From assembly GCA_023379265.1 (NCBI GenBank), contig JAMCUI010000013.1, positions 11,576 through 75,575 on the forward strand: DNA of 64,000 bases, written 5' to 3'. The position numbers and the translations under genes are program-made. The notes under the pieces were generated by a model. That model worked only from the letters and a program-made list of their open reading frames with translations, was not told the DNA's origin and searched no databases. The number at the start of each line of letters is the position of its first letter. Position 1 is the first letter of the stretch. Shown one piece after another: positions 10,146 through 28,158 of the stretch. Origin of the DNA: Patescibacteria group bacterium. GTDB lineage: Bacteria > Patescibacteriota > Microgenomatia > 2-02-FULL-39-11.

Positions 10146-11018
10146 TTACCTCCCTTTCATAAACTTTATAACGTCCTCATACCTATATTGTAGCTCTTTA
10201 GCACTGAAGCGTAAAGACATGGCTGCAGCGGCATTGGCAAACACTGCTGAGTAAACTTCATCCCTGGTCCTTACATACATAAAAGCATAAGCTGCGGCAA
10301 AAACATCTCCGGCTCCTGTTGAGTCAACCGACTTATAGACCTTAAAGGCTGCGGTGTCTTTAACTTTCCCCTCACTATATATGGTACTGCCTTTCTCAGC
10401 TCTCGTGACTATGCTTATTCTCCCATCCCTACCCCATCTGGCCGCAATCTCATCTATATCCTCATAATCTTCTTCTGATACGACTATAAGGTCAAACATT
10501 TGTACCATCTTTCCCTCCCCAATCCATTTTCTTTTCGCAACCCTGCCTGAAGACAAGACTTTCCTGAAAAATCCTTGCGCCAGAAGAACAAAATAGGCAT
10601 TGCCGGAAATTTCCTTCCATTTGGATATTTGCCTATACGTGAGGTTATTTAGTATCGGGGCGACCATCACTATTTTTTTCTCCGAAAAAAGGCTATCAGG
10701 AATTCCATAAATACTGTCAAAACCTGCACTAGGCAGGTTTTGGACAAACTGTTCCCTTTTCTTATCGGAAAGTAAAACATTACGGAAAATGAGCGTCTCA
10801 AGTGAAGTAGGAGATTGGGGATATAAAGATATATTTTCCAATACCGACTTGTCGAAATCTTTGCCAAATGGAGAAACTACTGCTGTAGGAAAATTTAGGT
10901 TCCGTAGTGTCCTTGCGCAAAAAAATGCCGATCCACCAGGAGAGATCGTCTTCCCTCTCTCAGTCAAATTATGATCTATGGTCAGGTTTCCCAATATGAG
11001 CGCTTTTTCTTTGGTCAT
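10146..11018 (-). CDS. PfkB-family carbohydrate kinase (ribokinase-like)
   Basis: C-terminal DSTGAGDVFAAAYA matches the PfkB DTxGAGD signature. 290 aa. Confidence 0.7.
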   Translation of the reverse strand: MTKEKALILGNLTIDHNLTERGKTISPGGSAFFCARTLRNLNFPTAVVSPFGKDFDKSVLENISLYPQSPTSLETLIFRNVLLSDKKREQFVQNLPSAGFDSIYGIPDSLFSEKKIVMVAPILNNLTYRQISKWKEISGNAYFVLLAQGFFRKVLSSGRVAKRKWIGEGKMVQMFDLIVVSEEDYEDIDEIAARWGRDGRISIVTRAEKGSTIYSEGKVKDTAAFKVYKSVDSTGAGDVFAAAYAFMYVRTRDEVYSAVFANAAAAMSLRFSAKELQYRYEDVIKFMKGR

Positions 11019-11023
11019 AGATA

Positions 11024-11428
11024 CTAAAACATGGAAATATTTTCATAATGTTTTATGCTTGGATGAAAAGAGGCACTAAGGTTTACGGCAATTAAGTCAA
11101 TCCGTAGGCTATCAGGAAGGCGGGGATGGTAGAGTTTGTAAAATTGCGCTGATTTTACCAGATTTCGCAGTTTGTAAGAGGTTATGGAGTCTTCGGGCGA
11201 TCCGAAAGATGTACCGGTACGCGTTTTTACCTCCACAAATACAAGAGTTTTTTCTTTTAGGGCTACGATATCAATATCACCGTACTGCTTGCGGAAATTT
11301 CGTTCTATTATGAGGTATCCCTTTTTTTTGAGGTATAATTCAGCCTCGTCTTCGCCTATTTTCCCTATTTTGAGGTTATTTTTTGGTTTCATTTGCCAAA
11401 GATGCGCTTGACTCGGGCCTCTCTTCAT
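11024..11428 (-). CDS. yraN: YraN-family endonuclease (UPF0102)
   Basis: [22 protein letters not shown] ... DIDIVA ... VFVEVKTR core. The ORF N-terminus overlaps rplS by about 50 nt, so the true start is probably later or non-ATG. Confidence 0.6.
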
Positions 11429-11837
11429 TCTTTTTAGTTTCTTTTGTATCTTCTTTTTCAGGCAATACCTTACCTCTTTCTTCGAGCTGTTCAGCTTTTT
11501 TCCCTACTTTGCCTCTGAGATAATATAGCTTGGCGCGCCTGACTTTTCCTCTTTTCTCTACAGTGATTTTCTTTATCCACGGTGATGAAAGCGGAAACAC
11601 CCTCTCCACTCCTATTCCTCCGGCTCCAATCCTACGGACTGTAAAACTGCGGTTTTCGGCTACACCCCTTATTGCTATCACTATCCCCTCAAAGATTTGA
11701 ATTCTTTCCCTTACTTCTTCTTTGACTTCCTTTTTTGTCTTGCCGGAAACCTTCTCTTTTTCGATCAGCTTATAATGTACTTTTATGGTGTCGCCGACGT
11801 TGAATTTTCTGTTTTCGTGTAGGGCCTGATTTGCCAT
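11376..11837 (-). CDS. rplS: 50S ribosomal protein L19 with K/E-rich C-terminal extension
   Basis: [15 protein letters not shown] ... [13 protein letters not shown] ... FTVRRI ... [11 protein letters not shown] ... RRAKLYYLR is colinear with bL19. There are about 40 extra charged residues at the C-terminus. Confidence 0.85.
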
Positions 11838-12628: not shown

Positions 12629-13030
12629 ATGCCTATGATTCTTGAAGCCAAAGGAAGTCAAAGAATATCTTCCGCCTCCCGCCAACCAAATGCAGAAATC
12701 CTCTTTCCGGAAATCAGTACAAAGAATGACATTCCTACTGGAGAAGGTATGCTCGGAAGGAAAATACGTGAAACAGTGCTTTTTGTTGCTTCGCTGCCTT
12801 TCACAACCAATACAAATGGTTTGCACATCACAGGAAGAGATAGGAGACGACAGGATAATGGACTTAAAAGACTTAACCCACAATTGGCTGGAGCTCTTGA
12901 TACGATACGATCTGCAAAAAGAGGTGATCCTACAGCAAAGGAGATTGTGAAGAAAGCTAAAGGGGCAAAAAAACTAAGGAGACGTGCACTTGAGTTTACC
13001 CGTCTTTTCCAAAACGGAGATGGGCACTAA
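12629..13030 (+). CDS. hypothetical small basic protein
   Basis: 133-aa ORF downstream of a strong promoter-like motif, with an R/K-rich C-terminus. An antisense ORF at 12623-12883 competes with it. Low confidence that either is real. Confidence 0.25.
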   Translation: MPMILEAKGSQRISSASRQPNAEILFPEISTKNDIPTGEGMLGRKIRETVLFVASLPFTTNTNGLHITGRDRRRQDNGLKRLNPQLAGALDTIRSAKRGDPTAKEIVKKAKGAKKLRRRALEFTRLFQNGDGH

Positions 13031-13175
13031 ATTTTCCTCCCCGTGTTTGGAACCACCTAATTTGTGAACCAACCTTCCCTAGAACCGAACACCCTTTATA
13101 ACTATTTGACTAGAGTTTACTATACTTTCCGTCAATTTAATATTCAAGTTCCTGCGTACGCATACGTAAACAATA

Positions 13176-13733
13176 ATGTCTAATTATCCTTTGTCTATTA
13201 AGTTACAGGAATTAGGTTCAGTATATCTTCAACGTGTTAAATGCGGCAAGATTAACTGTCATTGTAACGATGGGAGGTTACATAAAGCATATTATCACTA
13301 TTATCGTCAACCTGATGAGTTTGGTGTAGTTAGAATGGTTAAAAAATACATCAGAAGGTCAGATGTCAGAAAGATTAAAGCATGGATGCAGTACCAAAAG
13401 AACAAACGATTTCTTATTAAATTAGATGGCGCATGGTTTCAATATTCTGGTGAGGATATACCTACTTTACCACCAAAGTTTGAACTGTTGAAGCGAATAC
13501 ACATTATAAGAAAAAAGGCACTAAAGGAGAAAAAAAGATTAAATGAGCAAATATACAGGCAAATGTATGGAGAAAATTACCGAGAGGGACAATTAGCAGA
13601 AAAAAGGTTAAGTAGGATACTAAATAAAAAAAATATTGTTCCTGAATTATTTAACATTGAAGTTGATAAATTGGTTAAGGAATTAAACGAATATACGAAC
13701 TCACGCACGTCAAATCTACTATCTCCTCATTAG
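13176..13733 (+). CDS. DUF6788-like protein (CGKxNCxC zinc motif)
   Basis: LQRVKCGKINCHCNDGRLHKAYYHYY resembles the DUF6788 signature (C-G-K-x-N-C-x-C ... HGPY.Y), recalled from memory. Confidence 0.45.
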   Translation: MSNYPLSIKLQELGSVYLQRVKCGKINCHCNDGRLHKAYYHYYRQPDEFGVVRMVKKYIRRSDVRKIKAWMQYQKNKRFLIKLDGAWFQYSGEDIPTLPPKFELLKRIHIIRKKALKEKKRLNEQIYRQMYGENYREGQLAEKRLSRILNKKNIVPELFNIEVDKLVKELNEYTNSRTSNLLSPH

Positions 13734-13987
13734 CGTCTTAAAATGCGCGGCGAGTGTCCGATGTTTATTTAAAATAAGATATTTAGCACGTTCTGTCGGT
13801 TCAATATAAGAAATATGTGATAAATGTTGAATGATGGGATTTCTAGGACAATCTAGGAGCGTTATTTCCGTTACATAAGATTTTTTAACAGTTTAGATTA
13901 CTAAGATAAGATTATCTCTTATTAAAATAATCAGAAATAGCCTCAAATCAGTCTTCTTAACGCACTAGAAAAAATGTCTCATCTTAA

Positions 13988-14596
13988 TCATACGCTGAAT
14001 TGAAGAAAATTGATTGTTCGTGCTCTATTGAAAAAACTTCTTCGTAAATCTCTATTATGTGGATTTCTTACCTCTGTAAGATACTGTTCAACCGCTCTTC
14101 TAAAATCCAGCCAATATTTTGGGTCAATAAAGCGCCATACTCCTTTATTATGCTCCCAGCTATGTATTACTCCGGCAATACATCTAATATTTTGGCCATT
14201 AATATTTATTAACAAATTATCAATCTGATTATCAGTCAAATCTTGGCCTCCACCATGATTATAAACAATAAACTTTTTCCGTTTTATTGCATATTCGTGA
14301 GTTAAACCGCATCGTAAATCGTCGTATACTATATGAGGATTATTACGCCTTCTACCATTAAATCTACGTAATAACAAACGGTACTCTTCGCCCATTCTAG
14401 AAAAAAATGAATCAAATCTTTCACCTGAGTTACCATTAGGAAGAATAAACGAACCAATTACCTCTGAATAATTTAATAATCCTTGAGCAACTAGGAAATT
14501 AGCTTTTGCTTGAAACATTGCCCTTTTCGTATCTTCGCTCATCCAGCGTACCATTGTTTCAAACTTACGGATAAGCTCATCATTTGTTTGTTTCAT
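13988..14596 (-). CDS. hypothetical protein with an Rx4HxY (HEPN-like) motif; 4th gene of the RM-linked cassette
   Basis: 202-aa ORF lying 1 nt downstream of the preceding gene. LRCGLTHEY fits R-x4-H-x-Y. No other family recognised. Confidence 0.45.
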   Translation of the reverse strand: MKQTNDELIRKFETMVRWMSEDTKRAMFQAKANFLVAQGLLNYSEVIGSFILPNGNSGERFDSFFSRMGEEYRLLLRRFNGRRRNNPHIVYDDLRCGLTHEYAIKRKKFIVYNHGGGQDLTDNQIDNLLININGQNIRCIAGVIHSWEHNKGVWRFIDPKYWLDFRRAVEQYLTEVRNPHNRDLRRSFFNRARTINFLQFSV

Positions 14597-14597
14597 G

Positions 14598-15488
14598 TCA
14601 AGTTTTTTTATTTAATCCCTCAACAGTTGTTAAATATCGTTTAGCAATATCATCAAGTCTTTTATCAAATCCGAACTCAAATAATTTATCACACTCACCA
14701 ATTAAAGAATAATAGAAATCAAATACTGCTACCAAATTATTTTCAATCCAGTTTAACCCTGGACCAACCATGATATTTAGACCTAAACCACTATCTTTCA
14801 CATACTCATTAATTACTCGTACAGCCGTATGAGCAATCTGTGACTGTAAAGCATAAATTGTTCTGTAATTTCCTATACGTCCTATTTCCAAAGCCATATC
14901 ATAAATCGTTTTATCAGACCAACCAAACCTTTTATATTTATATTTCTCCTGAACCTCTTTTGCCATTTTAGTAACCTCTTCTATATTTGTATCTCCTGGT
15001 TGAGGACTAATTACTCTTCCTTCTATTTCTTTTAATATTTCCGGTTTTGTTTTTGCATAATCAAACATCTTTTTACGCAAAACCCAATCATAAGCAAAAT
15101 AGCGATTAATTCGGTAATCTGTTTTGTCTTTCAAGATGTACTGTAGAGTAACTAGTAATTCAAAAAGTGAACGTACTAGGATTGCTGCATCTTCTCCATA
15201 ACCTTCAGAGCATAAAATTAATACAGCCTCATGTGTTTTATACGCTTTACCTAGTGTAAAAGATGTATAAGCTTTCTTTGGAGTATCTGCATTGCATTTC
15301 TTCTTAAAAATATCATCAACAACGCCCTTTAGTTCTCTATTAAATCCAAACAGATTACTATACTCTTTATCAATGACTATCTTTATATCTTTTTCTGGTA
15401 GGAGTATTTGTTGATTTTTCGTTAAGCAGCATTTTTTATATTTTTTACCACTACCACAACGACAAGTGTCATTTCTACCAATTTTCAT
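14598..15488 (-). CDS. SEC-C motif protein with a C-terminal alpha-helical domain of unknown function (DUF5677-like?)
   Basis: N-terminal RNDTCRCGSGKKYKKCC is a canonical SEC-C zinc-binding motif. The remaining roughly 270 aa are unassigned. Confidence 0.55.
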   Translation of the reverse strand: MKIGRNDTCRCGSGKKYKKCCLTKNQQILLPEKDIKIVIDKEYSNLFGFNRELKGVVDDIFKKKCNADTPKKAYTSFTLGKAYKTHEAVLILCSEGYGEDAAILVRSLFELLVTLQYILKDKTDYRINRYFAYDWVLRKKMFDYAKTKPEILKEIEGRVISPQPGDTNIEEVTKMAKEVQEKYKYKRFGWSDKTIYDMALEIGRIGNYRTIYALQSQIAHTAVRVINEYVKDSGLGLNIMVGPGLNWIENNLVAVFDFYYSLIGECDKLFEFGFDKRLDDIAKRYLTTVEGLNKKT

Positions 15489-15493
15489 ATTTA

Positions 15494-16048
15494 TTAAGTA
15501 ATTTTTCCTTCTATGTATTGTTTTGCTACATTACCGAGCCAGACAATACAACGTGTTAGGTCAAATAAAGTTGAAATAAATTGAGTTTTTGTTAGTCCTA
15601 CAGCAAAACCCCAAGCCTCTATTTTCTGTCTTTTTTCTTCATCAGTATGATGATAAAAACCATACATCCAACGTCTTAATATTTCTTTTGGAGGTACTGC
15701 TATTTCGTTTTCAATTAACGACATTGGTGACCTATCTAAGGTATTTTGATAAACCTCACGGGTTTTTCTGATATTATCTTTAATTTGAGTATTAGTGATA
15801 TATCTTTCTAGAATTTCGCTAATCTTTGGAAAGTTAATCTTTTCTCGTGGTGAATAGAAGTTTCTAAAAACTAACAAAAAAGACCTTAATTGCTCTTCGT
15901 CAGGTGTAGTTGTTGTAGCAAGCCCTGTATTACCAGTAATATTTAATTTGAAACTTATTTGGTGTTTACTTTTCAACAAACTACAACTTAATAGTTCTTC
16001 AATTTTAGTTAAAAATAATTCTATTGTTTTTTTATCTTCATTATCCAT
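15494..16048 (-). CDS. hypothetical protein (2nd gene of the RM-linked cassette)
   Basis: 184-aa ORF with 5-6 nt gaps to the genes on either side. Confidence 0.45.
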   Translation of the reverse strand: MDNEDKKTIELFLTKIEELLSCSLLKSKHQISFKLNITGNTGLATTTTPDEEQLRSFLLVFRNFYSPREKINFPKISEILERYITNTQIKDNIRKTREVYQNTLDRSPMSLIENEIAVPPKEILRRWMYGFYHHTDEEKRQKIEAWGFAVGLTKTQFISTLFDLTRCIVWLGNVAKQYIEGKIT

Positions 16049-16054
16049 ATGGTT

Positions 16055-17134
16055 TTATCCCACAGTAGCGATTGGAATATTAGATACTTCCGGTTCTGTT
16101 TCTGATGGAATATTAGTAAGCTCGTTTATTAACTCTTGCTTAGAAGTTTCATCAATTTTGAGTTTTCGTAAGGTCATAGTATCTTTAGTTACTTGAACAA
16201 CATCTATTTCTGTCAATATTTTATCTATAAGACCTCTTTTTTGAGCGTATTGAATATATTCCTTTAGGAATACTTTCCCATATGAGAACTCACCGAATTT
16301 TCTTTTAACAATATTTTCTAGAATAAATAAATTATCCTTTTTGTGAACGATACGAACATTGCGTACATAACTTGCAGCTATAGATTTTTCGTAGAGAATG
16401 TGGACAGGATATTTGAAATCTAATACACCGATAAGCGAGTTCACTTTATTTAAGTAAACTGTGAAGTTATCTAAGGCAATATTAAAGCCTGACCGCTTTG
16501 CAATACTTCGTAGGTTTTTTATTTGTTGTAAATCTTCAAATAATTGGAAGTCTTCTTTCTGAAACCTTGAGAAATTAATTTTCCCTACTAGTTCGTCAAG
16601 TAATACTAATATATTTGCCATAATTTCAGAGTTTTCATACGAAATAAAATTAATTCCATGAGCAAACATCAACCCCTTTGCTCGTTTTTGGAAACCTTTA
16701 AGAGAAAAAATTACTGGGCAATAGTTATAACGTGTATCAAATAAAACGTCATATCTTAGTTGACCAAACTTTTTGGTGTTAATTCTTACATATTGACTGA
16801 CGTCAATAAATGCGCCGAGAAACTCACGAACAATCTTTAATCCAATTGGTTTGTTGTAATTTTTAGCTTCTAAAACTAACATTAAGGGGTTGATAAACGG
16901 AATACCTAGACTAAACTGCTTAAAAAAATCTGGGTCATAGGTAGCTCCTCTTCCGTGTAATTTCTTTTGATTTAATGTGACTTGCATACCAGTTACATCG
17001 GTTGAAAAGCCCGCCTTGATTAATAGTAATTGAAGGATTTTTTCAAATAATTTCCCTTTGATGTATGACTTTGAGCCAGAATATTTAGCTAGTGCTTCTC
17101 CTTTTTGTTTCTTTATGTGTTTTTTCTTAACCAT
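16055..17134 (-). CDS. Mrr-like PD-(D/E)xK nuclease domain fused to an unknown C-terminal domain
   Basis: N-terminal region has GKLFEKILQLLLIKAGF ... YDPDFF ... LMLVLEAKNY, i.e. a D ... E-x-K arrangement like the Mrr catalytic domain. The C-terminal roughly 220 aa are unassigned. Starts 12 nt after the hsdS stop. Confidence 0.5.
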   Translation of the reverse strand: MVKKKHIKKQKGEALAKYSGSKSYIKGKLFEKILQLLLIKAGFSTDVTGMQVTLNQKKLHGRGATYDPDFFKQFSLGIPFINPLMLVLEAKNYNKPIGLKIVREFLGAFIDVSQYVRINTKKFGQLRYDVLFDTRYNYCPVIFSLKGFQKRAKGLMFAHGINFISYENSEIMANILVLLDELVGKINFSRFQKEDFQLFEDLQQIKNLRSIAKRSGFNIALDNFTVYLNKVNSLIGVLDFKYPVHILYEKSIAASYVRNVRIVHKKDNLFILENIVKRKFGEFSYGKVFLKEYIQYAQKRGLIDKILTEIDVVQVTKDTMTLRKLKIDETSKQELINELTNIPSETEPEVSNIPIATVG

Positions 17135-17146
17135 TGTAATTAGCCC

Positions 17147-18361
17147 CTAATTCTTATTAAATGTTTTTGCCAAAATAGCTTGTGTAAGTTTTGATACTCG
17201 TGTTTCTGCGCTTTCAATCTGTTTTTCCGCTTGATTAGCTATACTGAAATATTCCTGAATTATTTTTACAATTTCAATTTGTTCATCATAAGTTGGAAGA
17301 TGTAGTGAAATATTCTTTATCATTTCTTGATTAACTGTATTTTGTCCAGCGCTAGAAACCATATTTTGATTGATATAATTCCTAACTTCATCTAATTGAG
17401 AAAAATATAAGAGGAATGCAGAACTAATATTTGACTTTAATCTAATTCTGATGAAATGGTCACAATAAGCCCAATCGTTTATCTCCCTTATGAGAATAAA
17501 ATTACCAACAATTTGTGGACTACCGTTTACGCGAATAATCAAAATATCTTCTTTATTAAGTTTATATTTCTCTTTTTCTTTCAATGACATTTTAATTTTC
17601 CGAACATGTTCTGTTTGTGTTTCATAGTTCCTTATGTCTGCAAGCCGTAGTACAACCGTTTCTTGACCTTCGTTAGCGTATCTTTTGGATAAACCATTTT
17701 GAAAATTGTTTATAAAGTCACCTAAGATACCCTTTCCCCAATCATCTATTTTTTTATTATTTTTTTCTCGCCAATCTTCTGTGAGTTTTCCAGTAATCGC
17801 AGCAGATAAAATTGCTTGACGAAACTTAGTAATTATGTTTCTAGCTCTACTTATTTTTAATTTGGTTTGCTCAATAAAACTAGTAGCCTTTTTCAAGGTT
17901 GTAGTAATTTTTTCCTGTACCTCTTCACTAGGTAATTTAATCGGGATATTTTTCAATGCGGATTGATTAAGTTTTAGTCTTGTAGTCCCTCCGACAAAAT
18001 CCGTAAAATCAAAATAATCAAGATAATACTTAATAAACCAATTATTAGTCATCCCATTTTTTGCTCGTAATACGTGCGCGTGATTGTTGACCCAACTTCT
18101 TCCGTTTATAAGGTATGCAATGGGTTTAGATTTGTCCAAAAAAGGAGCTCCGTCTTCGCCTACTAAAACTAATTCTTCATTAAATAAAAAGTCATCAATC
18201 CATCCAACCAGACCAGTTGCACCGTAGTAAGGTATCTTACCTTGTCTTTTTTCTCTATCACTAGAATTAACTGGTACTCGTTGGTTATCTAATATATCAA
18301 CGCAGTCTTTTAATAGATAGTTTTTCCACTCGTAATTATTTTCCGTTTTCAAGTTCTGCAT
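17147..18361 (-). CDS. hsdS: Type I restriction-modification specificity subunit HsdS (two target-recognition domains)
   Basis: 404 aa with two TRD-like halves separated by the conserved central helical spacer (ITGKLTEDWREKN) and the C-terminal KLTQAILAKTF helix. Overlaps the hsdM stop. Confidence 0.85.
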   Translation of the reverse strand: MQNLKTENNYEWKNYLLKDCVDILDNQRVPVNSSDREKRQGKIPYYGATGLVGWIDDFLFNEELVLVGEDGAPFLDKSKPIAYLINGRSWVNNHAHVLRAKNGMTNNWFIKYYLDYFDFTDFVGGTTRLKLNQSALKNIPIKLPSEEVQEKITTTLKKATSFIEQTKLKISRARNIITKFRQAILSAAITGKLTEDWREKNNKKIDDWGKGILGDFINNFQNGLSKRYANEGQETVVLRLADIRNYETQTEHVRKIKMSLKEKEKYKLNKEDILIIRVNGSPQIVGNFILIREINDWAYCDHFIRIRLKSNISSAFLLYFSQLDEVRNYINQNMVSSAGQNTVNQEMIKNISLHLPTYDEQIEIVKIIQEYFSIANQAEKQIESAETRVSKLTQAILAKTFNKN

Positions 18362-19781
18362 AGATTTTCTCTAAATTGTTTGTAGCTTCCTTCAACTCGG
18401 AAAGAACCTCAGTAATAAGCCCCTGGGGGTCAGCTATTTCGCCTCCATCGTCAATATCCTTATCTTTCAACCATTTGAAGCTATCCAGTTTGTAATTTCT
18501 CTCTTTTATTTGCGAAATGCTAAACTTTTTCCAGCGATTTTCTTTTGAGTGACTTTCGTCACGCTTTGATTGACCATTAGCGTTTTCTCCGTAACACTTC
18601 TCAAAATCTTCAAAATGCTTAGATGATAATGGTCTATCTTTTACAGTAATGCCAGGTACATTGGTTCTAGCATCATAAATCCATGTATTCTCGGTTGGCA
18701 TTCCTTTGGTAAAAAACACTACATTTGCTTTTACTCCTTGGCTATAAGGAGTAAACGTACCATTGGGAAGGCGAAGTATAGTGTGTACATTACAATCCTG
18801 CATGAGAATTTTGAATACTTCTGCCGCTTGGTCGGCAAATAGTACGTTGTCGGGCAGTACAATAGCCGCTCTGCCGCCTGGTTTAAGAATAGTAAGGACA
18901 TGTTGGACGAAGTTAAGCTGTTTATTACTGGTGGAGACTGTAAAATCTTGCCTTTCAGGAGCTTGATTAGCCCCTTTCGTGCCAAAAGGAGGATTAGTTA
19001 GCACTACATCGTATCTATCACCATGGTCAGGTTCATAAAGACTATCACCTAATCGGATATTTGAAATAATTCCGTGTAAATAAAGGTTCATAAGAGCCAA
19101 TCTTCTAGGTCTTGCTACAAGCTCTGTCCCAAAATAAGTATTTTTCTTAATTCTGTCTAAATCTTCTCGGTTTATCGCACTTCCGGTTTGCTGTAAAAAC
19201 CACTCATAAGCGGATAGAAGGAAACCACCTGTACCTGCTGCTGGGTCACAAATAGTGAAGTCTTTAGCTTTTCTAGGGTCTGGTTTCATCACTCTCACTA
19301 TTGTTTGGATAAGTATACGGGGCGTAAAATATTGTCCCGCTCCTTTTTTGCCTTCTGCGGCTGATTTTTCCAGTAATCCTTCGTATGCTTGTGCTTTTAC
19401 GTCTATATTCAATCCTGACCATTCAATCTCATCAATTAGGTCAATAAGTCTTTTAAGATTTACCGGTTTAGTAAACTTTGATAATGCTTCTGTAAATATG
19501 GCTCCGAGCAATCCTTCTTGTTTGGCAAGTCCTCGTAATAGTTCACTATAAAAATCAATAAGCTCTGTACCCGATTTTGTTTTCAGTACTGCCCAAGAAT
19601 ACTCTTTTGGGATATTAGCTCCTTTTTCCTCTGCCATTTTAAGAAAAAGAAGATATGTTAACTGTTCTACGTAATCACCATAGTCCATTCCATCATGGCG
19701 TAATACATGACAATATCCCCATAATTTGTTAACGATATTTGTATTAGTTTGCATAGGCGTAAACAGCAGGAATAGTTGCAT
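18336..19781 (-). CDS. hsdM: Type I restriction-modification N6-adenine DNA methyltransferase HsdM
   Basis: N-terminal HsdM_N region, AdoMet motif DPAAGTGGFL and catalytic NPPFG. The ORF N-terminus overlaps hsdR by 38 nt, so the true start is probably the internal Met near 19754. Confidence 0.9.
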   Translation of the reverse strand: MQLFLLFTPMQTNTNIVNKLWGYCHVLRHDGMDYGDYVEQLTYLLFLKMAEEKGANIPKEYSWAVLKTKSGTELIDFYSELLRGLAKQEGLLGAIFTEALSKFTKPVNLKRLIDLIDEIEWSGLNIDVKAQAYEGLLEKSAAEGKKGAGQYFTPRILIQTIVRVMKPDPRKAKDFTICDPAAGTGGFLLSAYEWFLQQTGSAINREDLDRIKKNTYFGTELVARPRRLALMNLYLHGIISNIRLGDSLYEPDHGDRYDVVLTNPPFGTKGANQAPERQDFTVSTSNKQLNFVQHVLTILKPGGRAAIVLPDNVLFADQAAEVFKILMQDCNVHTILRLPNGTFTPYSQGVKANVVFFTKGMPTENTWIYDARTNVPGITVKDRPLSSKHFEDFEKCYGENANGQSKRDESHSKENRWKKFSISQIKERNYKLDSFKWLKDKDIDDGGEIADPQGLITEVLSELKEATNNLEKIYAELENGK

Positions 19782-22446
19782 TTAATTCTTGTAAAAATGG
19801 TATCAATTTCCCATCAAAGTCGGCATCAATTCGTTTATAACTTCCACCAAGATTAGTAAAGATGGGCATTTCACCAAAATCGTCTACATCAATCGTAAGA
19901 TTTTCAATGAGATGGAGTTTAATTAGGTTTAACCATTGTTCTTGTTTTTCTGTAACTTTTTTTGTGCCTAAAACTTTCTTCATGGCTAAATCAATCCTCT
20001 CTTTTGCCGAAAGTAAAGGTTCATCTTTCGCAGCGTGTTTAACCATTGAAATAATATCAGCAAGAGGATATTTATAAGCTCTGCGTAAATTATCTTCTGT
20101 ATAGCGTTCTGGTTGTTTGGAAAGTGAAGTCCGCAGTTCCTTTAATGCTTTTGTATCCCAATTTTTAGGTTTATTTATTACGATACTAATAGCCTCAATA
20201 TGCTCAGGATTATCTTTTACAAACCTCTCAAACTGTTTGATGTAGTCGTCAGGTTTTAGCTCTCTTCCGTCAGTAGTCCGAAATATATACTCTGATGTGA
20301 CAGTATCTTCTTGCTCAATAGCACGTATAAACCTTAATGGAGGCCGTGGATAATGTTTTAGTAGGTCAATAAACTTTTCATCTGTTAAGATTTTAAGCGT
20401 AGCTACTCGTTCTTTAGTTAAAGCATCAGGCAGGTTTTTAGCAAAGGCAGAGATGTCGCCATCTGGAATGTACTTTACGAACATTTCTCGTCCTTCGGCA
20501 GTAATATTTTTGGCAATTCGTTGAAGTCTCTTTACCAGACAGCGAGTATTGTATTCAACGTCAATATTATTATTTATTGCCTCTATTATTTCTTCAATAG
20601 TACGTACAGGATTGACTGGTGGAATTTGTGTTATTCCAGTTGTATTTTTGAACGCTTCAAGTAATGTTCCATCAAAACAATCAAAAACAGTGAAGTGATT
20701 TTTTGCTCGCGTCCCAAGTCCATTGGGAAAATTATTACAAAGTCGTGTACCCCGACCTAACATTTGCTCAAATAAAATACGGGATTTTACAGGACGTAGG
20801 AAAACGATATTTTCAATAGATGGAATATCAACGCCAGTTGATAGCATATCAACAGTAATTACTATATGCGGGTCGGGTCTATTTCTAAACTCTTTAATAC
20901 GAGTAAGTGGTCTATCAACGGTAGGTGAACCCGTAATCTTTTGTACGAAAGCATCCCCTTTACCGAAAATATCTCGGCAAATGTTTATTAGTTGGTCAGC
21001 GTGTGATATGTGAGGTAAATCATTATCAGCAAAGATGAGAGTTTTGGGGAAACGACCTAATTCTTTTTCTTGTTCAAGCGCATATTTAGCAAACTCCTGA
21101 ATAATTTTCCGATTACTTTCAGGTGCAGTAATATCCCTTTCTACGTCTGCGACTTCAAAATGTCTTTCATCTTCTAATAAATCCAGTTGCTGTGCACCTG
21201 TTTGCGTGTCAACCTGTTCAATTTCTTCGCCTTCTTTCAAAGTAATACCCTTAATCCTGACACCAGAGGAGACTTTTACAGCATCATAATCCACTAAAAA
21301 ACCATCTTGAACAGCTTTTTCATAAGTATAGCGATATGCGATTTCCTTAAAATAGCTTGTTGTATGTGCAGCGGGTGTTGCAGTAAGTCCAATTTTTATT
21401 GCATCAAAATGATTGAGAACTCCACGCCATTTACTTACTTCGTGTGAAGTATAACCTCTATGACACTCGTCAGCTATGATAGTGTCAAAAGCGTTAATAG
21501 GCATATCAATCTTGTCGGCATCATCGTCTGGGTCATAATCACCGCTATAGCTAAACATTCCCTCTTTGCCATAAAGATTAATTTGCATACGTTGTATTGT
21601 TGAAACATAGACGAATACTTGATTACCGTCTGGGTCTGTAAGGTAGCTGGTAGGAATAGTGTTAAAATCTACTTTTTCTTCACTTTCAAAATCATCAATT
21701 TTGAACTTTTGACTATAAACTTGGTAGATTTGGTTAAACTTCAAACCATTTTCTGCTTCGTAACTAGCAAACTCTGTTACTGCTTGTGCAGCCAACGCTT
21801 TGCGGTCAACTAAGAAAAGAATACGTTTACTTACTCCTGATTTAAGTAAACGATATACAAGAGACGCAATAGTGAAAGTCTTACCTGTTCCTGTAGCCAT
21901 AGCGACCAGCATTGAGCGTTTATTATTAGCGATGGCATTTTCTATGGCGATAATTGCATCTCGCTGGTAGTATCGCAACTTACTATAGTTAGGTGGATTT
22001 TCAGAAAACCACCTAGTATTTTCCTGTGTTTTTATTGTTAAATATTCAATCAGTGCTTTTGGAGTATGAAACTCTTGTATTTGTCGTGAGCGGCTAGTAG
22101 ATAATCGTAAATCTTGAAACCAGATTATTTCACCGTTTGTGGAATAAATAAAAGGAACTTCCAATCCTTGCTCCTTAGCTCCTTTTACATATCGTTGAGC
22201 TTGTGATAAAACATTTTGAGGGCCGAGTGTAATCTTCTTTGCCTCAACAAAAGCAACGAGCTTTCCATTAGTAAATAAGGCATAATCTACTGGGCCTGTT
22301 GCAGTAGGATATTCCTCTACAGCATTTTTGTGAAGCACCGATATATCTAACCCCTCTTTATAAGGGATAATATTTTCCCATCCAGATTTTTTCAATTTTT
22401 CATCAATCCACTTTTTACGAGTGGCTTTTTCATTTACATTTTCCAT
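19744..22446 (-). CDS. hsdR: Type I restriction enzyme R subunit HsdR (nuclease plus SF2 helicase)
   Basis: N-terminal HsdR nuclease region, Walker A MATGTGKT, DECH box (IIADECHRGY), and helicase C and C-terminal domains. 900 aa. Confidence 0.9.
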   Translation of the reverse strand: MENVNEKATRKKWIDEKLKKSGWENIIPYKEGLDISVLHKNAVEEYPTATGPVDYALFTNGKLVAFVEAKKITLGPQNVLSQAQRYVKGAKEQGLEVPFIYSTNGEIIWFQDLRLSTSRSRQIQEFHTPKALIEYLTIKTQENTRWFSENPPNYSKLRYYQRDAIIAIENAIANNKRSMLVAMATGTGKTFTIASLVYRLLKSGVSKRILFLVDRKALAAQAVTEFASYEAENGLKFNQIYQVYSQKFKIDDFESEEKVDFNTIPTSYLTDPDGNQVFVYVSTIQRMQINLYGKEGMFSYSGDYDPDDDADKIDMPINAFDTIIADECHRGYTSHEVSKWRGVLNHFDAIKIGLTATPAAHTTSYFKEIAYRYTYEKAVQDGFLVDYDAVKVSSGVRIKGITLKEGEEIEQVDTQTGAQQLDLLEDERHFEVADVERDITAPESNRKIIQEFAKYALEQEKELGRFPKTLIFADNDLPHISHADQLINICRDIFGKGDAFVQKITGSPTVDRPLTRIKEFRNRPDPHIVITVDMLSTGVDIPSIENIVFLRPVKSRILFEQMLGRGTRLCNNFPNGLGTRAKNHFTVFDCFDGTLLEAFKNTTGITQIPPVNPVRTIEEIIEAINNNIDVEYNTRCLVKRLQRIAKNITAEGREMFVKYIPDGDISAFAKNLPDALTKERVATLKILTDEKFIDLLKHYPRPPLRFIRAIEQEDTVTSEYIFRTTDGRELKPDDYIKQFERFVKDNPEHIEAISIVINKPKNWDTKALKELRTSLSKQPERYTEDNLRRAYKYPLADIISMVKHAAKDEPLLSAKERIDLAMKKVLGTKKVTEKQEQWLNLIKLHLIENLTIDVDDFGEMPIFTNLGGSYKRIDADFDGKLIPFLQELNATIPAVYAYAN

Positions 22447-22455
22447 AATAAGTAT

Positions 22456-22641
22456 CTATCTACCTACGAGTTTTTTTAGAAAACGTTTAATATCTTCTTT
22501 TTTATAGCGTCTGTCTCCTCTGTTACTGATTATTACTGCTTTTAATTTTCCTGTTTTATCCCAACGTCTTAAAGTTTCAGGATTAACTCCTAACATTTCT
22601 GCTGCTTGGCGTATTTTTATTAGTTTTACATTCCTTGGCAT
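22456..22641 (-). CDS. HTH_17 (excisionase/MerR-like) small DNA-binding protein
   Basis: IKIRQAAEMLGVNPETLRRWDKTGKL is a typical HTH_17. Lies 9 nt upstream of hsdR on the same strand. Confidence 0.65.
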   Translation of the reverse strand: MPRNVKLIKIRQAAEMLGVNPETLRRWDKTGKLKAVIISNRGDRRYKKEDIKRFLKKLVGR

Positions 22642-22751
22642 TTTGTCCCAAAATTAGAATAGTAACTTCTACTCAATTATACATCACATCTGATACAATT
22701 ACCCTATAATTGAATAGGCTAAATTGTTGAATAGAAAAATTAATTGATTTT

Positions 22752-23288
22752 ATGATTTTATCTCAGAAAGCTATTGACGAGTTCAAGGCTATTTTTGAAA
22801 AAAAATATCATAAGAAGTTAACTAATGCAGAAGCATCAGAATCCGCGCATAATCTAGTAGGATTCTTTGAGGTGTTATATGAGATTGCAGAGCGTGAGGC
22901 AATAAGAACTAAACGCCTTGAGAAAGAGCCGAAAGGATTTTATTTAGAGGACGATGGTAAGGTGTATAACTGTCTCATCTGCCACAACACAATATCAGGC
23001 AAGACTGGTTGGTGGGATAAATGGGGTCAGAAGTGTCTTAACTGTCAAAGGAACATTAATGCTGGTGTGATACCACCAGATATATGCAAAAACGATAAAA
23101 TATGGTTTAAGAATTGGCAGTTGAAAGAGTATTTCGGCATCCATCCTTCAAAAGTACAAAAGTTAAGAAGAACCGGAGAATTAAAAGGGATAGACTTGTT
23201 GGATGAAAAAGGGTGGACGTACCTTACAGTGTTTTTAGTCAAGGATAATGTATCTTTTTTGAAAAAGTACTCAAAAAATAAGAAATAA
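22752..23288 (+). CDS. hypothetical zinc-finger protein
   Basis: CLICHN ... CLNCQ four-cysteine cluster. ORF only. Diverges from the hsd operon. Confidence 0.4.
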   Translation: MILSQKAIDEFKAIFEKKYHKKLTNAEASESAHNLVGFFEVLYEIAEREAIRTKRLEKEPKGFYLEDDGKVYNCLICHNTISGKTGWWDKWGQKCLNCQRNINAGVIPPDICKNDKIWFKNWQLKEYFGIHPSKVQKLRRTGELKGIDLLDEKGWTYLTVFLVKDNVSFLKKYSKNKK

Positions 23289-23602
23289 TTTATAAGAGTT
23301 GTATAGATTTTTATTGATTTCAATAGAATAAAAGACTATCAGTCCGAAGTCTTAGCAATTATTTCCCCTGAACACCGTACCTACTCACTCATGTTTCATT
23401 GACCCACTATTGACATACGTGATGTACCACTTACACTCAAATCATAAACTTAATTTAGATAGATAGAGCGATACGACAATGAAAATTAAAAGCATCAAAA
23501 AATCCATTTTCCCCACCCAAAGAGACGCCATAAAGAAGATTAACCGTTTAACTCGTAAATCCTATAAGTATATTGATTTTCTTATTTGGAGAGGAGCTAT
23601 TT

Positions 23603-24205
23603 ATGGACAAAAGATATGAGCCCCATTTAATCGGAGATTATGTTTTTGACGAGACAGCCTCGGCCTTGCAAAAAAGTATTCGCAGGGGTCTGGAATACGA
23701 AAGTTGCTGGTGGGGTTTCATAATACACCAGAGTGGCTATGGCCAGTATCTATGGCGCAGGTTAAATATTATAACGGCAGAAGATGTTGGGTTAGGTAAT
23801 CCTAGTGCATTAATTCTAGTTTCTGCACTACAGCAGTCATGGCTGTTGTTTCACAAGCATGATAAAGCGCCTACTCTGGACAAATATTTGCTATGCTGTC
23901 AGGCAATCTTGCATCTTTGTCGTTCTCCCAAATCCCGTGAAGCTGATAGCCTAACGAATTTGATTGAGGAAAACTATAAATCAGGCAAACGATTGGCAGT
24001 CGCGGAATACGCTTTGGATTCACACTGTGAAAAAGGACGTCAAAGATGGGGTAGTTTCGGCAACAGAACTGACGGAAAAGAAAAGAAGCGATTGGACATG
24101 TGGTTTAAAGTTTGGTCGTATATTGAAAACCAAGCATACCCCGATAAGTGGATAGATGAACTTAAAAGTATATGGTACGGCAGAACAAAGGAAGGTAAGC
24201 CATGA
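23603..24205 (+). CDS. stand-alone MgsA/RarA C-terminal-domain-like protein (no AAA+ module)
   Basis: ALQKSIRRG ... ITAEDVGLGNPSAL ... HLCRSPKSREA parallels the MgsA_C block SA.QKSIRGS ... IASEDIGLADP.AL ... YLA.APKSN. Start set at the Met preceded by GGAGAGGAG. The track ORF begins 30 nt earlier at 23573. Confidence 0.5.
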   Translation: MDKRYEPHLIGDYVFDETASALQKSIRRGLEYESCWWGFIIHQSGYGQYLWRRLNIITAEDVGLGNPSALILVSALQQSWLLFHKHDKAPTLDKYLLCCQAILHLCRSPKSREADSLTNLIEENYKSGKRLAVAEYALDSHCEKGRQRWGSFGNRTDGKEKKRLDMWFKVWSYIENQAYPDKWIDELKSIWYGRTKEGKP

Positions 24206-25104
24206 AAAAAATTACGAGTCTAGAGTTAGGTTTTAATAGTTACCCAAGAAAAATCTTTGACAATCTGGACGTCAGTGAAAGCACACGGGTTGATTATAAC
24301 TACAGGATTGGTTTATTCCTTACATTTATTAAATACAATCATTTTGTCAGTAACAGCTTTTTGGATTTCAAGCGGTATCTTTCAAAAAGGAATGATTATG
24401 CAGTCTCTACTAAGAATAAATACCTTATAACAGCAAAAGTCTTTCTAAAAGAGCTTAACAGGTTAGGGTTTCTGCCCATAAATATCACGCAGAATGTTAA
24501 ATTATTCCAGCAGAATAGGAAACACAAGAGAATTGGATTGAGTGAAAGCGAAGTATTGCTTCTATCAGAAAAAATCAAACAATTACCCATCACGATGAAA
24601 AACACACGGTTAAGAGCTATTCTATGCTGTTTGGTGCTACAGGGGCTTCGTCAGAAGGAGATAATCGGACTGGCAGTCCGAGATTTGGATTTAGTAAATC
24701 AAACCATATCAATCACTGGTAAGGGAAGGGAAGACAAAGAGATGGTTGATTTGCATCCAGAAACGGTAAAAGCTTTGTCAGAATACCTTGTTACAAACAA
24801 AATTGCAGACGGCCCGTTATTTGTTAGCCAAAGCAACCACAAGCGCAATAACAGACTAACTACACGAGGATTGAGAGGAATAGTAAAAGCAATGTTAAAA
24901 GAGCTAAATATAAACAAGTGCGTGCATGGGTTCCGACATTATTTTGCCACTAAACTAATTAAAACGTATAAAGGCGACTTGCTTGCAGTCGCCCAATATA
25001 CTCGCCACAAGAGTATTGATACTTTGCAGATTTATAACGACAGCATTAAGCATAAGGAAGATTTACCTCGTTTCTACCGAGCCTTTCAAGGGATTCAATT
25101 TTAA
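24202..25104 (+). CDS. tyrosine site-specific recombinase (phage-integrase/XerD-like)
   Basis: N-terminal SAM-like region and a C-terminal catalytic domain with R (LRQKEI), HGFRHYFAT and a conserved Y near the C-terminus (TLQIY). Start overlaps the previous stop (ATGA). Confidence 0.8.
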   Translation: MKKITSLELGFNSYPRKIFDNLDVSESTRVDYNYRIGLFLTFIKYNHFVSNSFLDFKRYLSKRNDYAVSTKNKYLITAKVFLKELNRLGFLPINITQNVKLFQQNRKHKRIGLSESEVLLLSEKIKQLPITMKNTRLRAILCCLVLQGLRQKEIIGLAVRDLDLVNQTISITGKGREDKEMVDLHPETVKALSEYLVTNKIADGPLFVSQSNHKRNNRLTTRGLRGIVKAMLKELNINKCVHGFRHYFATKLIKTYKGDLLAVAQYTRHKSIDTLQIYNDSIKHKEDLPRFYRAFQGIQF

Positions 25105-25407
25105 CTGATTTTCAGTTCCAACTTCTCATAATACACATTACAGGAAATACAATTATAGGACACTAACTTTCTGTCTATTACGCACAAGGTCTAAATAACT
25201 CTAAAGAATTCTATAAAAGTATAGTCTGTCCTATAATCAATTAGAGCGTCCTATCGCTTAAATCCCTATTGACATCGGTATTGTTTTTGATATTATTAAA
25301 ATAAGTTAACAAATTACCGAAGTCCCACAAGGGGACGGGTTGATAGATACCCAAAGGCACATGGGATTAGTGTCAAGGGTATCTTTTTTTGTGGGAAAAA
25401 ATGAAAA

Positions 25408-25656
25408 ATGAATAACAACTATTGGACTACTTCTGATTTTACCTCCGCCTGTATAGCACGAGCCTCTGGAATACCTCTGATTGACCTTATCAAAGATAAA
25501 CCACATTCAATTACCTTCGTTTTTAGTGAAGAACCCCAAAAATGCGAGGCCATTCTGAAATCACATTGGGATAGAAGTCTCAAGCTAGAGACACGTTTAC
25601 TTTTTGAAACCATTAACGAGCTAAAAACAAGGATTTATGAGCGATTAAAACAGTAA
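25408..25656 (+). CDS. hypothetical small protein
   Basis: 82-aa ORF inside the island. Confidence 0.3.
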   Translation: MNNNYWTTSDFTSACIARASGIPLIDLIKDKPHSITFVFSEEPQKCEAILKSHWDRSLKLETRLLFETINELKTRIYERLKQ

Positions 25657-25684
25657 AAAGAATGTTTTTTAATGTAAATGAAAT

Positions 25685-26239
25685 ATGGAAAATCGTTACC
25701 ACATCAAATGGGAAGGATTAAGAAAAATGATTAGAAACCCTAATATACAATCTATTCACAAGGTTATTTTAGTTGACTTACTTTTATATTCAGGTGTAGA
25801 TGGCAATTGCTTTCCATCACAAAAGACATTAGCAATAAATCAAGGCAAATCAGAGCGTTATATTAGATTAAAGCTACATGAACTCCAAAAATTAGGTTTA
25901 ATTTCTTGGGAACGTGGTGGATTTGGATGTTCAAATAATTATTCTCTCAATAAGGAACTATATATCCTCACTGATGATGACAAAGGGTCTTCTATATCCT
26001 CTAAGATAGGAAATCAATATCCTTTACGAATAGGAAATACTCTACCTACTAATGTAATCAAATTAAATAATCAAACTAATAATAGTCAATCGCAAATTAA
26101 TAAAACGAACCCATCCTATTTCATTCCTTGTAATCAAAAAGGGTGTTCTGGTGGACGAATTTTCAATACAAAAAAAAATACTGCATCTAAATGTGATTGT
26201 TTAATTTCCTTTGAAAAGTGTAAAAAGAATGGAGACTAA
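25685..26239 (+). CDS. helix-turn-helix (HTH_36-like) DNA-binding protein, replication-initiator-like
   Basis: FPSQKTLAINQGKSERYIRLKLHELQKLGLISWER is typical of winged-HTH domains in phage or plasmid replication proteins. Confidence 0.45.
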   Translation: MENRYHIKWEGLRKMIRNPNIQSIHKVILVDLLLYSGVDGNCFPSQKTLAINQGKSERYIRLKLHELQKLGLISWERGGFGCSNNYSLNKELYILTDDDKGSSISSKIGNQYPLRIGNTLPTNVIKLNNQTNNSQSQINKTNPSYFIPCNQKGCSGGRIFNTKKNTASKCDCLISFEKCKKNGD

Positions 26240-26412
26240 TTTAAGTACCGAAAATCATAATTCACACGAAAAGCAATTATTAACTTCAAACGATGTTGAA
26301 AATCGGATGCGGATTATAGCTAACCTTATTATTGATAAATATCTTGACGATAAAAAGAACAAATTATTGAAAACATTAAATGAACCAACTACACTAAAAA
26401 TATAAATAAAAT

Positions 26413-28158
26413 ATGAAAATGTACGATGCTGTCGCTGCACTTAGAGTATCATCAACAAAACAAGGATTAGCTGGTGATAGCCCTGACGACCAACAATTAC
26501 AGATTGAAAACAAAGCGAAATTATTAGGTATAGATACCTCCAACATTAAATATTTTACTTTTATTCAATCTGCTTCAGGCATTGTACAGCCTTCTCAAGA
26601 AGCAATTGATTTTTGTAAGGAAAATCAGGGTAAAGTTAAGTATTTTTTCATTAAATCTATAGATAGATTTACTCGTGGTGGTGTCTATTCTTACCTTCAA
26701 TTAAAAGCTCAACTCATTAAATATGGTGTACATTTAGTTGATGTATTAGGAGTAATCAATGAACAAAAAATAAATACTCTACAACATCTAGGACTAGAAT
26801 ATCGTTGGAGTGTTTATAATCCATCTTTTGCAAATGAACTCCTCAAAGTTGAGGAAGCAAAGAACGAAGTTTGTTCAATTCTTACTCGTCTCATTGGAGC
26901 TTCAATTCGTTATGTACGAATGGGGTATCGTGTTAGACAATCTCCGATGGGTTATCAAAATAGCAAAATTGAGACAACTGATGGGTTGAGAGTTGTTTTA
27001 ATACCTCATTCTATTGAAGCGAGATGGTTCATTAGAATGTTTGAGTTGAGAATACAAGGTAATTTATCTGATGAAGAAATAGTGAAAGAGGTTAATAGCA
27101 TGGGTTTTAAGTCTAGATTATTAAAGATACATGATAAAGTAGAAAGAACAAAAGTGATTAATTACAAAGGAAGTCTACCGCTCAATGTTAAACAATTTCA
27201 AAGATACATACAAAATCCTATTTATGCCGGTGTAAATACTGAAAAATGGACTAATGGTCAGCCGATTAAGACTAAGTTTGATGGGTTAGTAACTATAGAA
27301 ATGTTTAATAAAGCAAACCGCGGAAAAATTATGATTATTGAAGATGGGGATACGGTAAGGATTTACAAAGGTAAACTTCCGGAATGGCTTGTAAAGAAAG
27401 ATAAAGACAATCCACTGTATCCATATAAGAAACAGGTTCTTTGTCCCATATGCAGAAACCCTTTACTCGGCAGCGCACCAAAAAATAAAGCAGGCGACCA
27501 TATTCCCCGTTATCATTGTGGAATAACGAAGTTTCGTAATCACAAGTATTGGAGTGTAAATAAAAAGATATTTGACAAAACGATTAACAATTTTGTACAC
27601 ACGATTAGGTTTAGTGAGAAGTTTAAGAAACGACTTGAAGAAATCGTACTTGAAGAGTGGGAAAAAAGAAGTCAAAAATTAGTTTCCGATACGATAGATA
27701 TAAGAGAACAAGTTAATAAAATAGATTTTGATATTTTGCAACTTAAAGAAAGAATAAAACAGCTTACATCAACGACTGTAATTCAAATGCTTGAAGCTGA
27801 TATAGATGGATTAGTGCAAAAGAAAACAGGTTTAATTGTTGATTGTAATAAGAAAGAAGATGAGGATGTAGATATTCAGACACTAATCAACTACACAAAA
27901 TACTTAATGGAACACCTAGAAGAATTATTATTAGGAGGCTCTGACCCGCTTAAAAATGCTGCTCTTTTTGGACTAATTTTTGATACACCACCGACTTATC
28001 AAGATTTAGTAAATGGAACACCAGTTTTATCGCCTCTATTCCAGCTAAACGAGGATTTCAATTCTTCTAAATCTTTTTCTGTGAGCCCGGAGAGATTCGA
28101 ACTCTCAACCAACAGCTTAAAAGGCTGCTGCTCTACCGTTGAGCTACAGGCCCAGTAA
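26413..28158 (+). CDS. large serine recombinase (resolvase/invertase-type catalytic domain plus recombinase and zinc-ribbon domains)
   Basis: N-terminal AALRVSSTKQ has the catalytic Ser. DRFTRGG follows, then a recombinase domain, a CPICRNP ... HCG zinc ribbon and a coiled coil. The last roughly 24 codons are antisense to tRNA-Lys, so the true C-terminus is uncertain. Confidence 0.75.
   Translation: MKMYDAVAALRVSSTKQGLAGDSPDDQQLQIENKAKLLGIDTSNIKYFTFIQSASGIVQPSQEAIDFCKENQGKVKYFFIKSIDRFTRGGVYSYLQLKAQLIKYGVHLVDVLGVINEQKINTLQHLGLEYRWSVYNPSFANELLKVEEAKNEVCSILTRLIGASIRYVRMGYRVRQSPMGYQNSKIETTDGLRVVLIPHSIEARWFIRMFELRIQGNLSDEEIVKEVNSMGFKSRLLKIHDKVERTKVINYKGSLPLNVKQFQRYIQNPIYAGVNTEKWTNGQPIKTKFDGLVTIEMFNKANRGKIMIIEDGDTVRIYKGKLPEWLVKKDKDNPLYPYKKQVLCPICRNPLLGSAPKNKAGDHIPRYHCGITKFRNHKYWSVNKKIFDKTINNFVHTIRFSEKFKKRLEEIVLEEWEKRSQKLVSDTIDIREQVNKIDFDILQLKERIKQLTSTTVIQMLEADIDGLVQKKTGLIVDCNKKEDEDVDIQTLINYTKYLMEHLEELLLGGSDPLKNAALFGLIFDTPPTYQDLVNGTPVLSPLFQLNEDFNSSKSFSVSPERFELSTNSLKGCCSTVELQAQ
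28082..28153 (-). tRNA. tRNA-Lys (anticodon UUU)
   Basis: Reverse-complement GGGCCTGTAGCTCAACGGTAGAGCAGCAGCCTTTTAAGCTGTTGGTTGAGAGTTCGAATCTCTCCGGGCTCA folds as a cloverleaf with two G-U pairs in the acceptor stem. Anticodon loop CTTTTAA gives UUU. T-loop TTCGAAT. Confidence 0.8.

Follow-up and report, generated by a model that had tools for sequence, protein, structure and literature searches.

The 64,000-nt window analysed here, a stretch of contig JAMCUI010000013.1 of a Patescibacteria group bacterium, carries a Type I restriction-modification (R-M) operon that is directly followed by four open reading frames (ORFs), termed P1 to P4 (Table 1). A first-pass annotation had regarded these four genes as a candidate defence module linked to the Type I system. 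The coordinates and the spacing given there were reproduced: P1, P2, P3 and P4 are located downstream of the hsdS stop codon on the same strand, with 12, 6, 5 and 1 nt in front of the respective ORF. At the other end, a 61-aa ORF of the MerR/HTH_17 type is the first gene of the co-oriented run and ends 9 nt before hsdR, so that the run comprises eight genes. Judged by this spacing, it is plausible that all eight genes form one operon, as had been proposed for the four genes and the Type I system. Promoter and terminator scans, however, were no different from shuffled sequence (45 promoter-like sites vs 40.2 +/- 6.7 in the shuffles). The GC content of the individual genes of the block ranges from 0.30 to 0.385, as compared to 0.39 for the whole window and at least 0.41 for the flanks, and the genes P1 to P4 are alike in their low GC content (0.30-0.34). 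According to the homolog lists for P1, P2 and P4, the exact window proteins are annotated as hypothetical on an 80,434-bp contig of a Patescibacteria metagenome-assembled genome (MAG).

Table 1. Features of the P1-P4 locus and its surroundings (positions refer to the window)
Feature	Position	Strand	Remarks
P1 ORF	16055-17134	minus	359 aa, ATG start
P2 ORF	15494-16048	minus	184 aa, ATG start
P3 ORF	14598-15488	minus	296 aa, ATG start
P4 ORF	13988-14596	minus	202 aa, ATG start
hsdS, specificity subunit, 404 aa	17147-18361	minus	Methylase_S 3.4e-30 in two stretches; PADLOC Specificity_I 2.4e-60
hsdM, Type I methyltransferase, 481 aa	18336-19781	minus	N6_Mtase 3.2e-64, HsdM_N; PADLOC MTase_I 3.5e-171
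hsdR, restriction subunit, EcoEI_R_C type, 900 aa	19744-22446	minus	ResIII 1.2e-36, EcoEI_R_C 1.9e-35, HSDR_N, Helicase_C; PADLOC REase_I 2.7e-99
MerR/HTH_17-type DNA-binding protein, 61 aa	22456-22641	minus	Pfam MerR_1 1.9e-11, HTH_17 2.4e-11
DUF6788 protein	13176-13733	plus	E 8e-8; convergent with P4
Low-GC island	about 13000-29000		GC 0.31-0.38 vs at least 0.41
Tyrosine integrase	24202-25104		in low-GC island
HTH_36 protein	25685-26239		in low-GC island
581-aa ORF, weak 'Recombinase' match	26413-28158		on opposite strand to the overlapped tRNA-Lys(ttt)
tRNA-Lys(ttt)	28081-28153		overlapped by the 581-aa recombinase-like ORF on the other strand

The arrangement of the four genes is not conserved. 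The combination of P1 to P4 was absent from approximately 40 loci with a relative of one of the four genes (designated L001 and so forth), which were screened with profile hidden Markov models (HMMs) and tblastn, and no other contig examined has two or more of the four families adjacent to each other. The only contig common to the homolog lists for P1, P2 and P4 is that of the window. An orthologous operon was found in L039, where HsdR (85% identity), HsdM (85%) and P1 (79%) are closely related to the window proteins. DNA similarity between these two operons extends over hsdR-hsdM and then from the 3'-end of hsdS through P1, and stops at approximately position 16118 of the window, at the 3'-end of P1. 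The operons of L039 and L038 both end at P1, with the next gene on the opposite strand. Hence, the proposed four-gene defence module was not borne out, and the linkage to Type I systems holds for P1, whereas P2, P3 and P4 have other neighbors elsewhere. Recurrences of parts of the arrangement are only loose. In L006 and L007 homologs of P2 and P3, the latter with 52% identity, are located approximately 2.5 kb apart, and a P2-like ORF follows P1 in L029. Defence genes or candidates found near relatives of the four genes include PDC-S39, PDC-M33, PDC-S54, an OLD-family nuclease, a BrxC/D-like protein, Dcm/Vsr and HEPN_LA2681. No system model of PADLOC-DB v2 significantly matched the body of any of the four proteins, and P1 and P4 had no match at all, in agreement with the earlier statement that the genes do not resemble any named system. 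Relatives of P1, P2 and P4 were not found in 2.9 million viral contigs, where P3 matches were confined to the SEC-C motif. An origin of P2, P3 and P4 as diverged paralogs, for example all of the HEPN type, was ruled out by hhalign probabilities below 1%.

P1 possesses an intact Mrr/AF1548-like PD-(D/E)xK nuclease domain, as demonstrated by its fold and its invariant catalytic residues. This nuclease domain (approximately residues 11-165) is followed by a helical linker and a beta-rich C-terminal domain (approximately residues 231-340). The alpha-beta-beta-beta-alpha-beta core fold of the PD-(D/E)xK superfamily is present, and Foldseek matched AF1548 and MspJI with probabilities of 1.00 and 0.97. 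The motifs YDPD (D69) and VLEAKNY (E89, K91), on which the first-pass annotation had based an Mrr-like core, contain three of the five residues (E31, D69, E89, K91 and Q114) that are invariant among 20 family members down to 35% identity, so that this assignment was confirmed. P1 remained under the gathering threshold of Pfam Mrr_cat (PF04471; 14.9 vs 21 bits, E 0.03), and sequence and profile searches of the PDB with the P1 family gave no relative. The family is small, comprising 32 clusters among 5.8 billion proteins. Its C-terminal domain (residues 231-340) is kept across the family and gave only FERM/PH-like Foldseek matches with probabilities of at most 0.33. Neither Pfam nor fold comparisons revealed a HEPN domain, an ABC ATPase or other sensor domain in P1.

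After removal of duplicates 14 P1 contexts were informative, of which 11 represented Type I-type R-M loci. P1 directly abuts hsdS in 9 contexts and may be located on either side of it. hsdS precedes P1 in the window, L039 and L038, and the order P1-hsdS, usually with overlapping genes, was found in L001/2/19, L020, L024/25/36, L026, L027 and L033/34. A tenth context, L029, has the P2-like ORF between P1 and hsdS, and in L031 P1 follows hsdR and two ORFs. The HsdS assignments were confirmed by Pfam in L001, L024, L026, L027, L029 and L033, and in L020 an hsdS fragment was recognised by tblastn. L033/34 carries hsdM-like and hsdS genes with no hsdR within the contig. The P1 relatives abutting hsdS in L001, L020, L024, L026, L027 and L033 are at the level of 38-51% identity. 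The associated HsdR families differ: the EcoEI_R_C type is present in the window, L024 and L029, T1R_D3-like and T1RH-like_C domains were found in L001, and a T1R_D3-like domain in L026. In L038 a 77%-identical P1 occupies the same slot after hsdS, while the Hsd proteins are only approximately 30% identical and belong to a different Type I family. P1-hsdS loci occur in both bacteria and apparent archaea. Three relatives are solo genes in other defence-like neighborhoods: that of L003/4 has an OLD-family nuclease on one side and a helicase/BrxC-D-like/TerB cluster on the other, that of L005 is near DndB, and that of L037 follows a LexA-like repressor. Taken together, P1 represents a mobile module of one gene, which strongly but not invariably prefers the hsdS edge of Type I operons.

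Several of these loci contain additional genes. In a distant P1 clade an ORF of approximately 220 aa is located directly before P1 (L024 7145-8005, L029 7316-7972, L031 3603-4280 and L033 5605-6333). Its four copies share 51-65% identity and the motif EKTDGSFxQIGIRP; there was no Pfam match, and the L029 copy, the only one searched, had no PADLOC match. A relationship to P1 or P2 was ruled out (hhalign probability below 1%). This ORF may represent a second clade-specific partner of P1. Between hsdS and hsdM, L029 encodes a 289-aa Pfam HEPN (PF05168) protein (10673-11542) in an operon that also contains P1 and the P2-like ORF. In L029, too, a HEPN protein thus occurs together with a nuclease and a small helical protein, although its HEPN family is unrelated to P4. 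In L024 (10182-13050) the interval between hsdS and hsdM likewise holds extra genes, which code for a 421-aa protein with a NOV_C domain and for two predicted membrane proteins of 141 and 272 aa. The L001 contig (region 12203-20475) looks archaeal, with PCNA encoded nearby, and its hsd operon has a 536-aa gene between hsdS and hsdR. Downstream of it are YgjP-like and SLFN_AlbA_2 genes and an ORF of 496 aa that weakly matches Piwi (E 0.0016) and could be a short Argonaute-like gene.

P2, which had been described as devoid of recognisable domains, indeed had no match in Pfam, NCBIfam and PHROGs, and its PADLOC match was weak (RTasDUF1848, E 0.0014). No relative was found in the PDB by sequence and profile searches; NF-YC and RpoA were dismissed at E values of at least 0.07. 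The P2 family consists of 12 clusters with the conserved blocks LRSFLLxFRNFYSP and RRWxYGxYHHT. Usually, P2 is translationally coupled to a downstream protein of approximately 595 aa with DUF7380 and EMARD_N domains (L006, L007 and L012), which corresponds to the PADLOC candidate PDC-S39 (4e-49). Since P2 is coupled to PDC-S39-type proteins elsewhere, it may assist or regulate larger effectors. A literature search for EMARD, DUF7380 and DUF4209 returned matches only to an acronym of a human myopathy. The ORF directly after P1 in L029 is probably a remote P2 homolog, as suggested by sequence comparisons. It was collinear with the P2 family over 126 columns in hhalign (38% probability), and in a phmmer search with this ORF among 2,446 ORFs all P2-family members outranked the decoys (best E 0.0018 vs 0.36 for the first decoy).

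The SEC-C zinc motif (PF02810) predicted at the start of P3 was found at residues 5-22 (E 1.2e-7, 31.9 bits vs a cut-off of 20.4) with the pattern C-x-C...C-C. The remainder had been listed as an unassigned helical domain, but it belongs to Pfam DUF5677 (PF18928; residues 74-233, E 7.2e-37, 127.4 bits vs a cut-off of 27.1). SEC-C matched SecA and YchJ peptides in the PDB, and the DUF5677 part had no relative there in sequence and profile searches. The DUF5677 family comprises 1533 clusters at 50% identity, mostly without SEC-C, and R106, W190 and H220 are invariant in it. PADLOC matches of P3 arise only from the 20-residue SEC-C motif, with PDC-S52 scoring 0.042. The nearest relative, which is 74% identical and includes SEC-C, is encoded in L040 (193-1875) with no P4 after it. 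Located 9 nt in front of its gene is a gene whose 256-aa product is of the HARE-HTH type and faintly matches PDDEXK_5. From this arrangement, DUF5677 proteins may often be located beside nucleases. DUF5677 is enriched in recombinase-linked defence contigs of Bacillota (10.1101/2025.10.07.681051).

P4 (202 aa) is probably a HEPN-type RNase, as judged by its conserved motif and its fold matches. Its structural model is a helical bundle with a beta insert (pLDDT 89.8). Its top fold matches were HEPN proteins, including HepT (7ae2) and AbiV (9bj5). The motif RCGLTHEY, which the first-pass annotation had tentatively assigned to HEPN RNases, contains R95-x4-H100-x-Y102, and these residues are invariant in 20 members. 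The family comprises 41 clusters with the invariant pattern YDDLR-C-GL-x-HEY. Sequence models of the HEPN clan in Pfam, NCBIfam and PADLOC did not match P4, and a PDB profile search was empty. P4 relatives follow different genes: PDC-M33A/B/C and PDC-S54 beside Dcm/Vsr in L009-11, a trypsin-like protease in L013-15, where a large serine recombinase lies on either side, and a TPR-HEPN_LA2681 protein in L016 from a Woesearchaeota MAG. The relative in L017, from a Saccharibacteria MAG, has no partner. The latter two loci resulted from a scan of genome contigs with the P4 family. In L009 (3246-8609) PDC-M33A/B/C, PDC-S54 and the P4 homolog are chained head-to-tail next to Dcm and Vsr; these are candidate defences, none of which is validated. 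A nucleotidyltransferase antitoxin of the MNT type was found neither beside P4, which has the SEC-C/DUF5677 gene upstream and the convergent DUF6788 gene downstream, nor beside its relatives. Despite the 1-nt gap, P3 and P4 were ruled out as a toxin-antitoxin pair, as the closest relatives of each occur without the other. The 254-nt AT-rich spacer between P4 and the DUF6788 gene did not contain a detectable terminator-like site.

The block is part of a low-GC island that also encodes a tyrosine integrase and an HTH_36 protein. No exact att-like repeat of at least 12 nt that would mark the island borders was found between the tRNA-Lys region and 11-27.5 kb. The 61-aa MerR/HTH_17 protein may regulate the operon or the island, or may have an excisionase-like role there.

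In our interpretation, to which we assign a probability of approximately 0.6, the locus is a composite stack rather than a four-part machine: a Type I operon that has received the conserved passenger P1 and three further single-gene passengers, P2, P3 and P4, whose families are mutually unrelated and would move independently between defence neighborhoods of bacteria of the Candidate Phyla Radiation (CPR) and DPANN archaea. Several points weigh against it. The gaps of 1-12 nt among P1, P2, P3 and P4 would also fit a lineage-specific functional unit. Most relatives are located on short metagenomic contigs, so that the context counts rest on approximately 14 independent loci. Because of the three solo relatives, coupling of P1 to Type I systems is not obligatory. 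Finally, one DUF5677 ORF tested elsewhere was not among the protective ORFs (10.1101/2025.10.07.681051). It is very improbable that the four genes constitute one obligate R-M-linked system in which the nuclease, P2, the zinc/helical protein and a HEPN effector work together. Co-orientation, short gaps and similarly low GC content are in favor of such a system, as are the proximity of P2 and P3 homologs in L006/L007 and the probable P2-like ORF after P1 in L029, whose operon also includes a HEPN protein. These observations are opposed by the lack of the combination in the approximately 40 related loci, by the operons of L039 and L038 ending at P1, and by the different partners of the closest relatives: P3 follows the HARE-HTH/PDDEXK_5 protein and is not followed by P4, P4 follows PDC-S54, the protease or the HEPN_LA2681 protein, and P2 usually is coupled to PDC-S39. 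The comparative data have already largely refuted this explanation. A non-defence explanation, which we consider quite improbable, is that the genes are selfish or addiction cargo of an integrative island, such as a homing-type nuclease or a toxin-like HEPN gene stabilising the element, gathered at a permissive operon end. The integrase, the recombinase-like ORF and the neighboring tRNA-Lys would be in line with this, and so would the P4 relatives between serine recombinases, the frequency of toxins among HEPN proteins (PMC3710099) and the tested DUF5677 ORF that gave no protection. However, no antitoxin-like partner such as MNT adjoins P4, the neighbors elsewhere overwhelmingly are R-M and defence genes or candidates, and the adjacency of P1 to hsdS is difficult to explain by random accumulation.

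With regard to P1, a rather unlikely alternative is a guard similar to PrrC or Ronin, that is, a latent DNase that would be bound and silenced by HsdM/HsdS until a phage anti-restriction protein inactivates the Type I enzyme; its release would then lead to cell death or DNA degradation. PrrC and Ronin provide precedents, and the location at hsdS, directly in 9 contexts and with one intervening gene in the tenth, across two or more HsdR families would agree with such a function. The embedding frequency of P1 is as high as that described for PrrC (10.1101/2024.01.29.577857). However, the pairing of a 77%-identical P1 with only approximately 30%-identical Hsd proteins argues against tight co-evolved contacts, P1 relatives also occur solo in other defence islands, and the protein does not possess an ABC ATPase or other sensor domain. 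Solo occurrence and transfer between Hsd families favor an independent, complementary nuclease, whereas a guard is favored by the very frequent embedding of P1 and by its specific position at hsdS. We regard it as unlikely that P1 is the DNase equivalent of PrrC and founds a novel class of effectors dependent on Type I systems, which would dock on HsdM/HsdS as alternative nuclease arm or guard and fire on anti-restriction, assisted by a P2-like regulator in some lineages. In that case, CPR bacteria and DPANN archaea, among which CRISPR is rare, would possess a built-in anti-anti-restriction layer. CPR bacteria largely are without CRISPR-Cas (PMC4742961), and their apparent shortage of defences may partly reflect systems that are not detected by current tools (PMC12259885).

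If the locus is a composite stack, the hsd promoter probably drives all eight genes, whose products would work as layers independent of each other. Incoming unmodified DNA would be cut by the Type I enzyme, P1 would add a second DNA nuclease, and P4 an abortive-infection-type RNase. P1 could cover DNA that escapes the Type I enzyme, similar to the embedded Type IV system TgvAB or to Mrr; alternatively, the HsdM/S complex may restrain it, as is the case for PrrC.

The principle of defence genes inside R-M operons is known, and the P1-P4 families are uncatalogued in PADLOC. Close packing and co-orientation of genes at the end of a defence operon do not constitute evidence of a multi-gene system. 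P1 is the part of the locus worth following, mainly because it is linked to hsdS across Type I families in CPR/DPANN-type organisms. It is a concrete uncatalogued candidate, whose family is catalytically intact and stays next to hsdS even on moving between unrelated Type I systems. The Mrr gene is located beside hsdRMS in E. coli K-12. The catalytic domain of P1 is similar to those of Mrr, AF1548 and MspJI, but in P1 it is N-terminal and scores below the Mrr_cat threshold. Embedded defences in Type I operons have precedents (PMC11411939, 10.1101/2024.01.29.577857, PMC3710099), and Payne et al. reported that more than half of the genes embedded in such operons are without clear function (10.1101/2024.01.29.577857). 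Their PDCs and HECs, which are included in PADLOC, likewise are uncharacterised genes nested in Type I operons, and PDC-S39, PDC-M33 and PDC-S54 neighbor P2 or P4 relatives. That catalogue was built from RefSeq, whereas the P1-P4 families derive from CPR/DPANN metagenomes and have no PADLOC model beyond the SEC-C motif of P3. P4 and HepT of HepT-MntA have R-x4-H-x-Y in common, in addition to the fold match, but HepT is accompanied by an adjacent MNT antitoxin, which is not seen beside P4 or its relatives.

TgvAB, a GmrSD-like Type IV system in the Type I operon of Vibrio cholerae VPI-2, is a second independent DNA nuclease with complementary coverage (PMC11411939). P1 is co-located in a similar way but does not contain DUF262 or DUF1524. 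PrrC of EcoprrI is encoded by an extra nuclease gene next to hsdS of a Type Ic hsd operon and almost always is embedded, which resembles the situation of P1 in 11 of 14 contexts. In contrast, PrrC combines an ABC ATPase with a C-terminal HEPN RNase that cuts tRNA-Lys, whereas P1 has a PD-(D/E)xK DNase-type fold and no ATPase. Guards of the PrrC/Ronin type are controlled by HsdM/S (10.1101/2023.04.06.535777; PMC3710099). In Ronin, an HsdM/HsdS decoy, the effector RonA, like P1, is tightly linked to hsdS/hsdM, and its release by anti-restriction proteins has been proposed. RonA is a 61-aa membrane protein and Ronin is without hsdR, whereas the present operon has an intact hsdR and its P1 is a soluble nuclease of 359 aa. 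If P1 acts alone, a compact single-gene restriction nuclease would be added to the known systems, and if it depends on the Type I complex, the guarding principle of PrrC and Ronin would be extended to a DNase.

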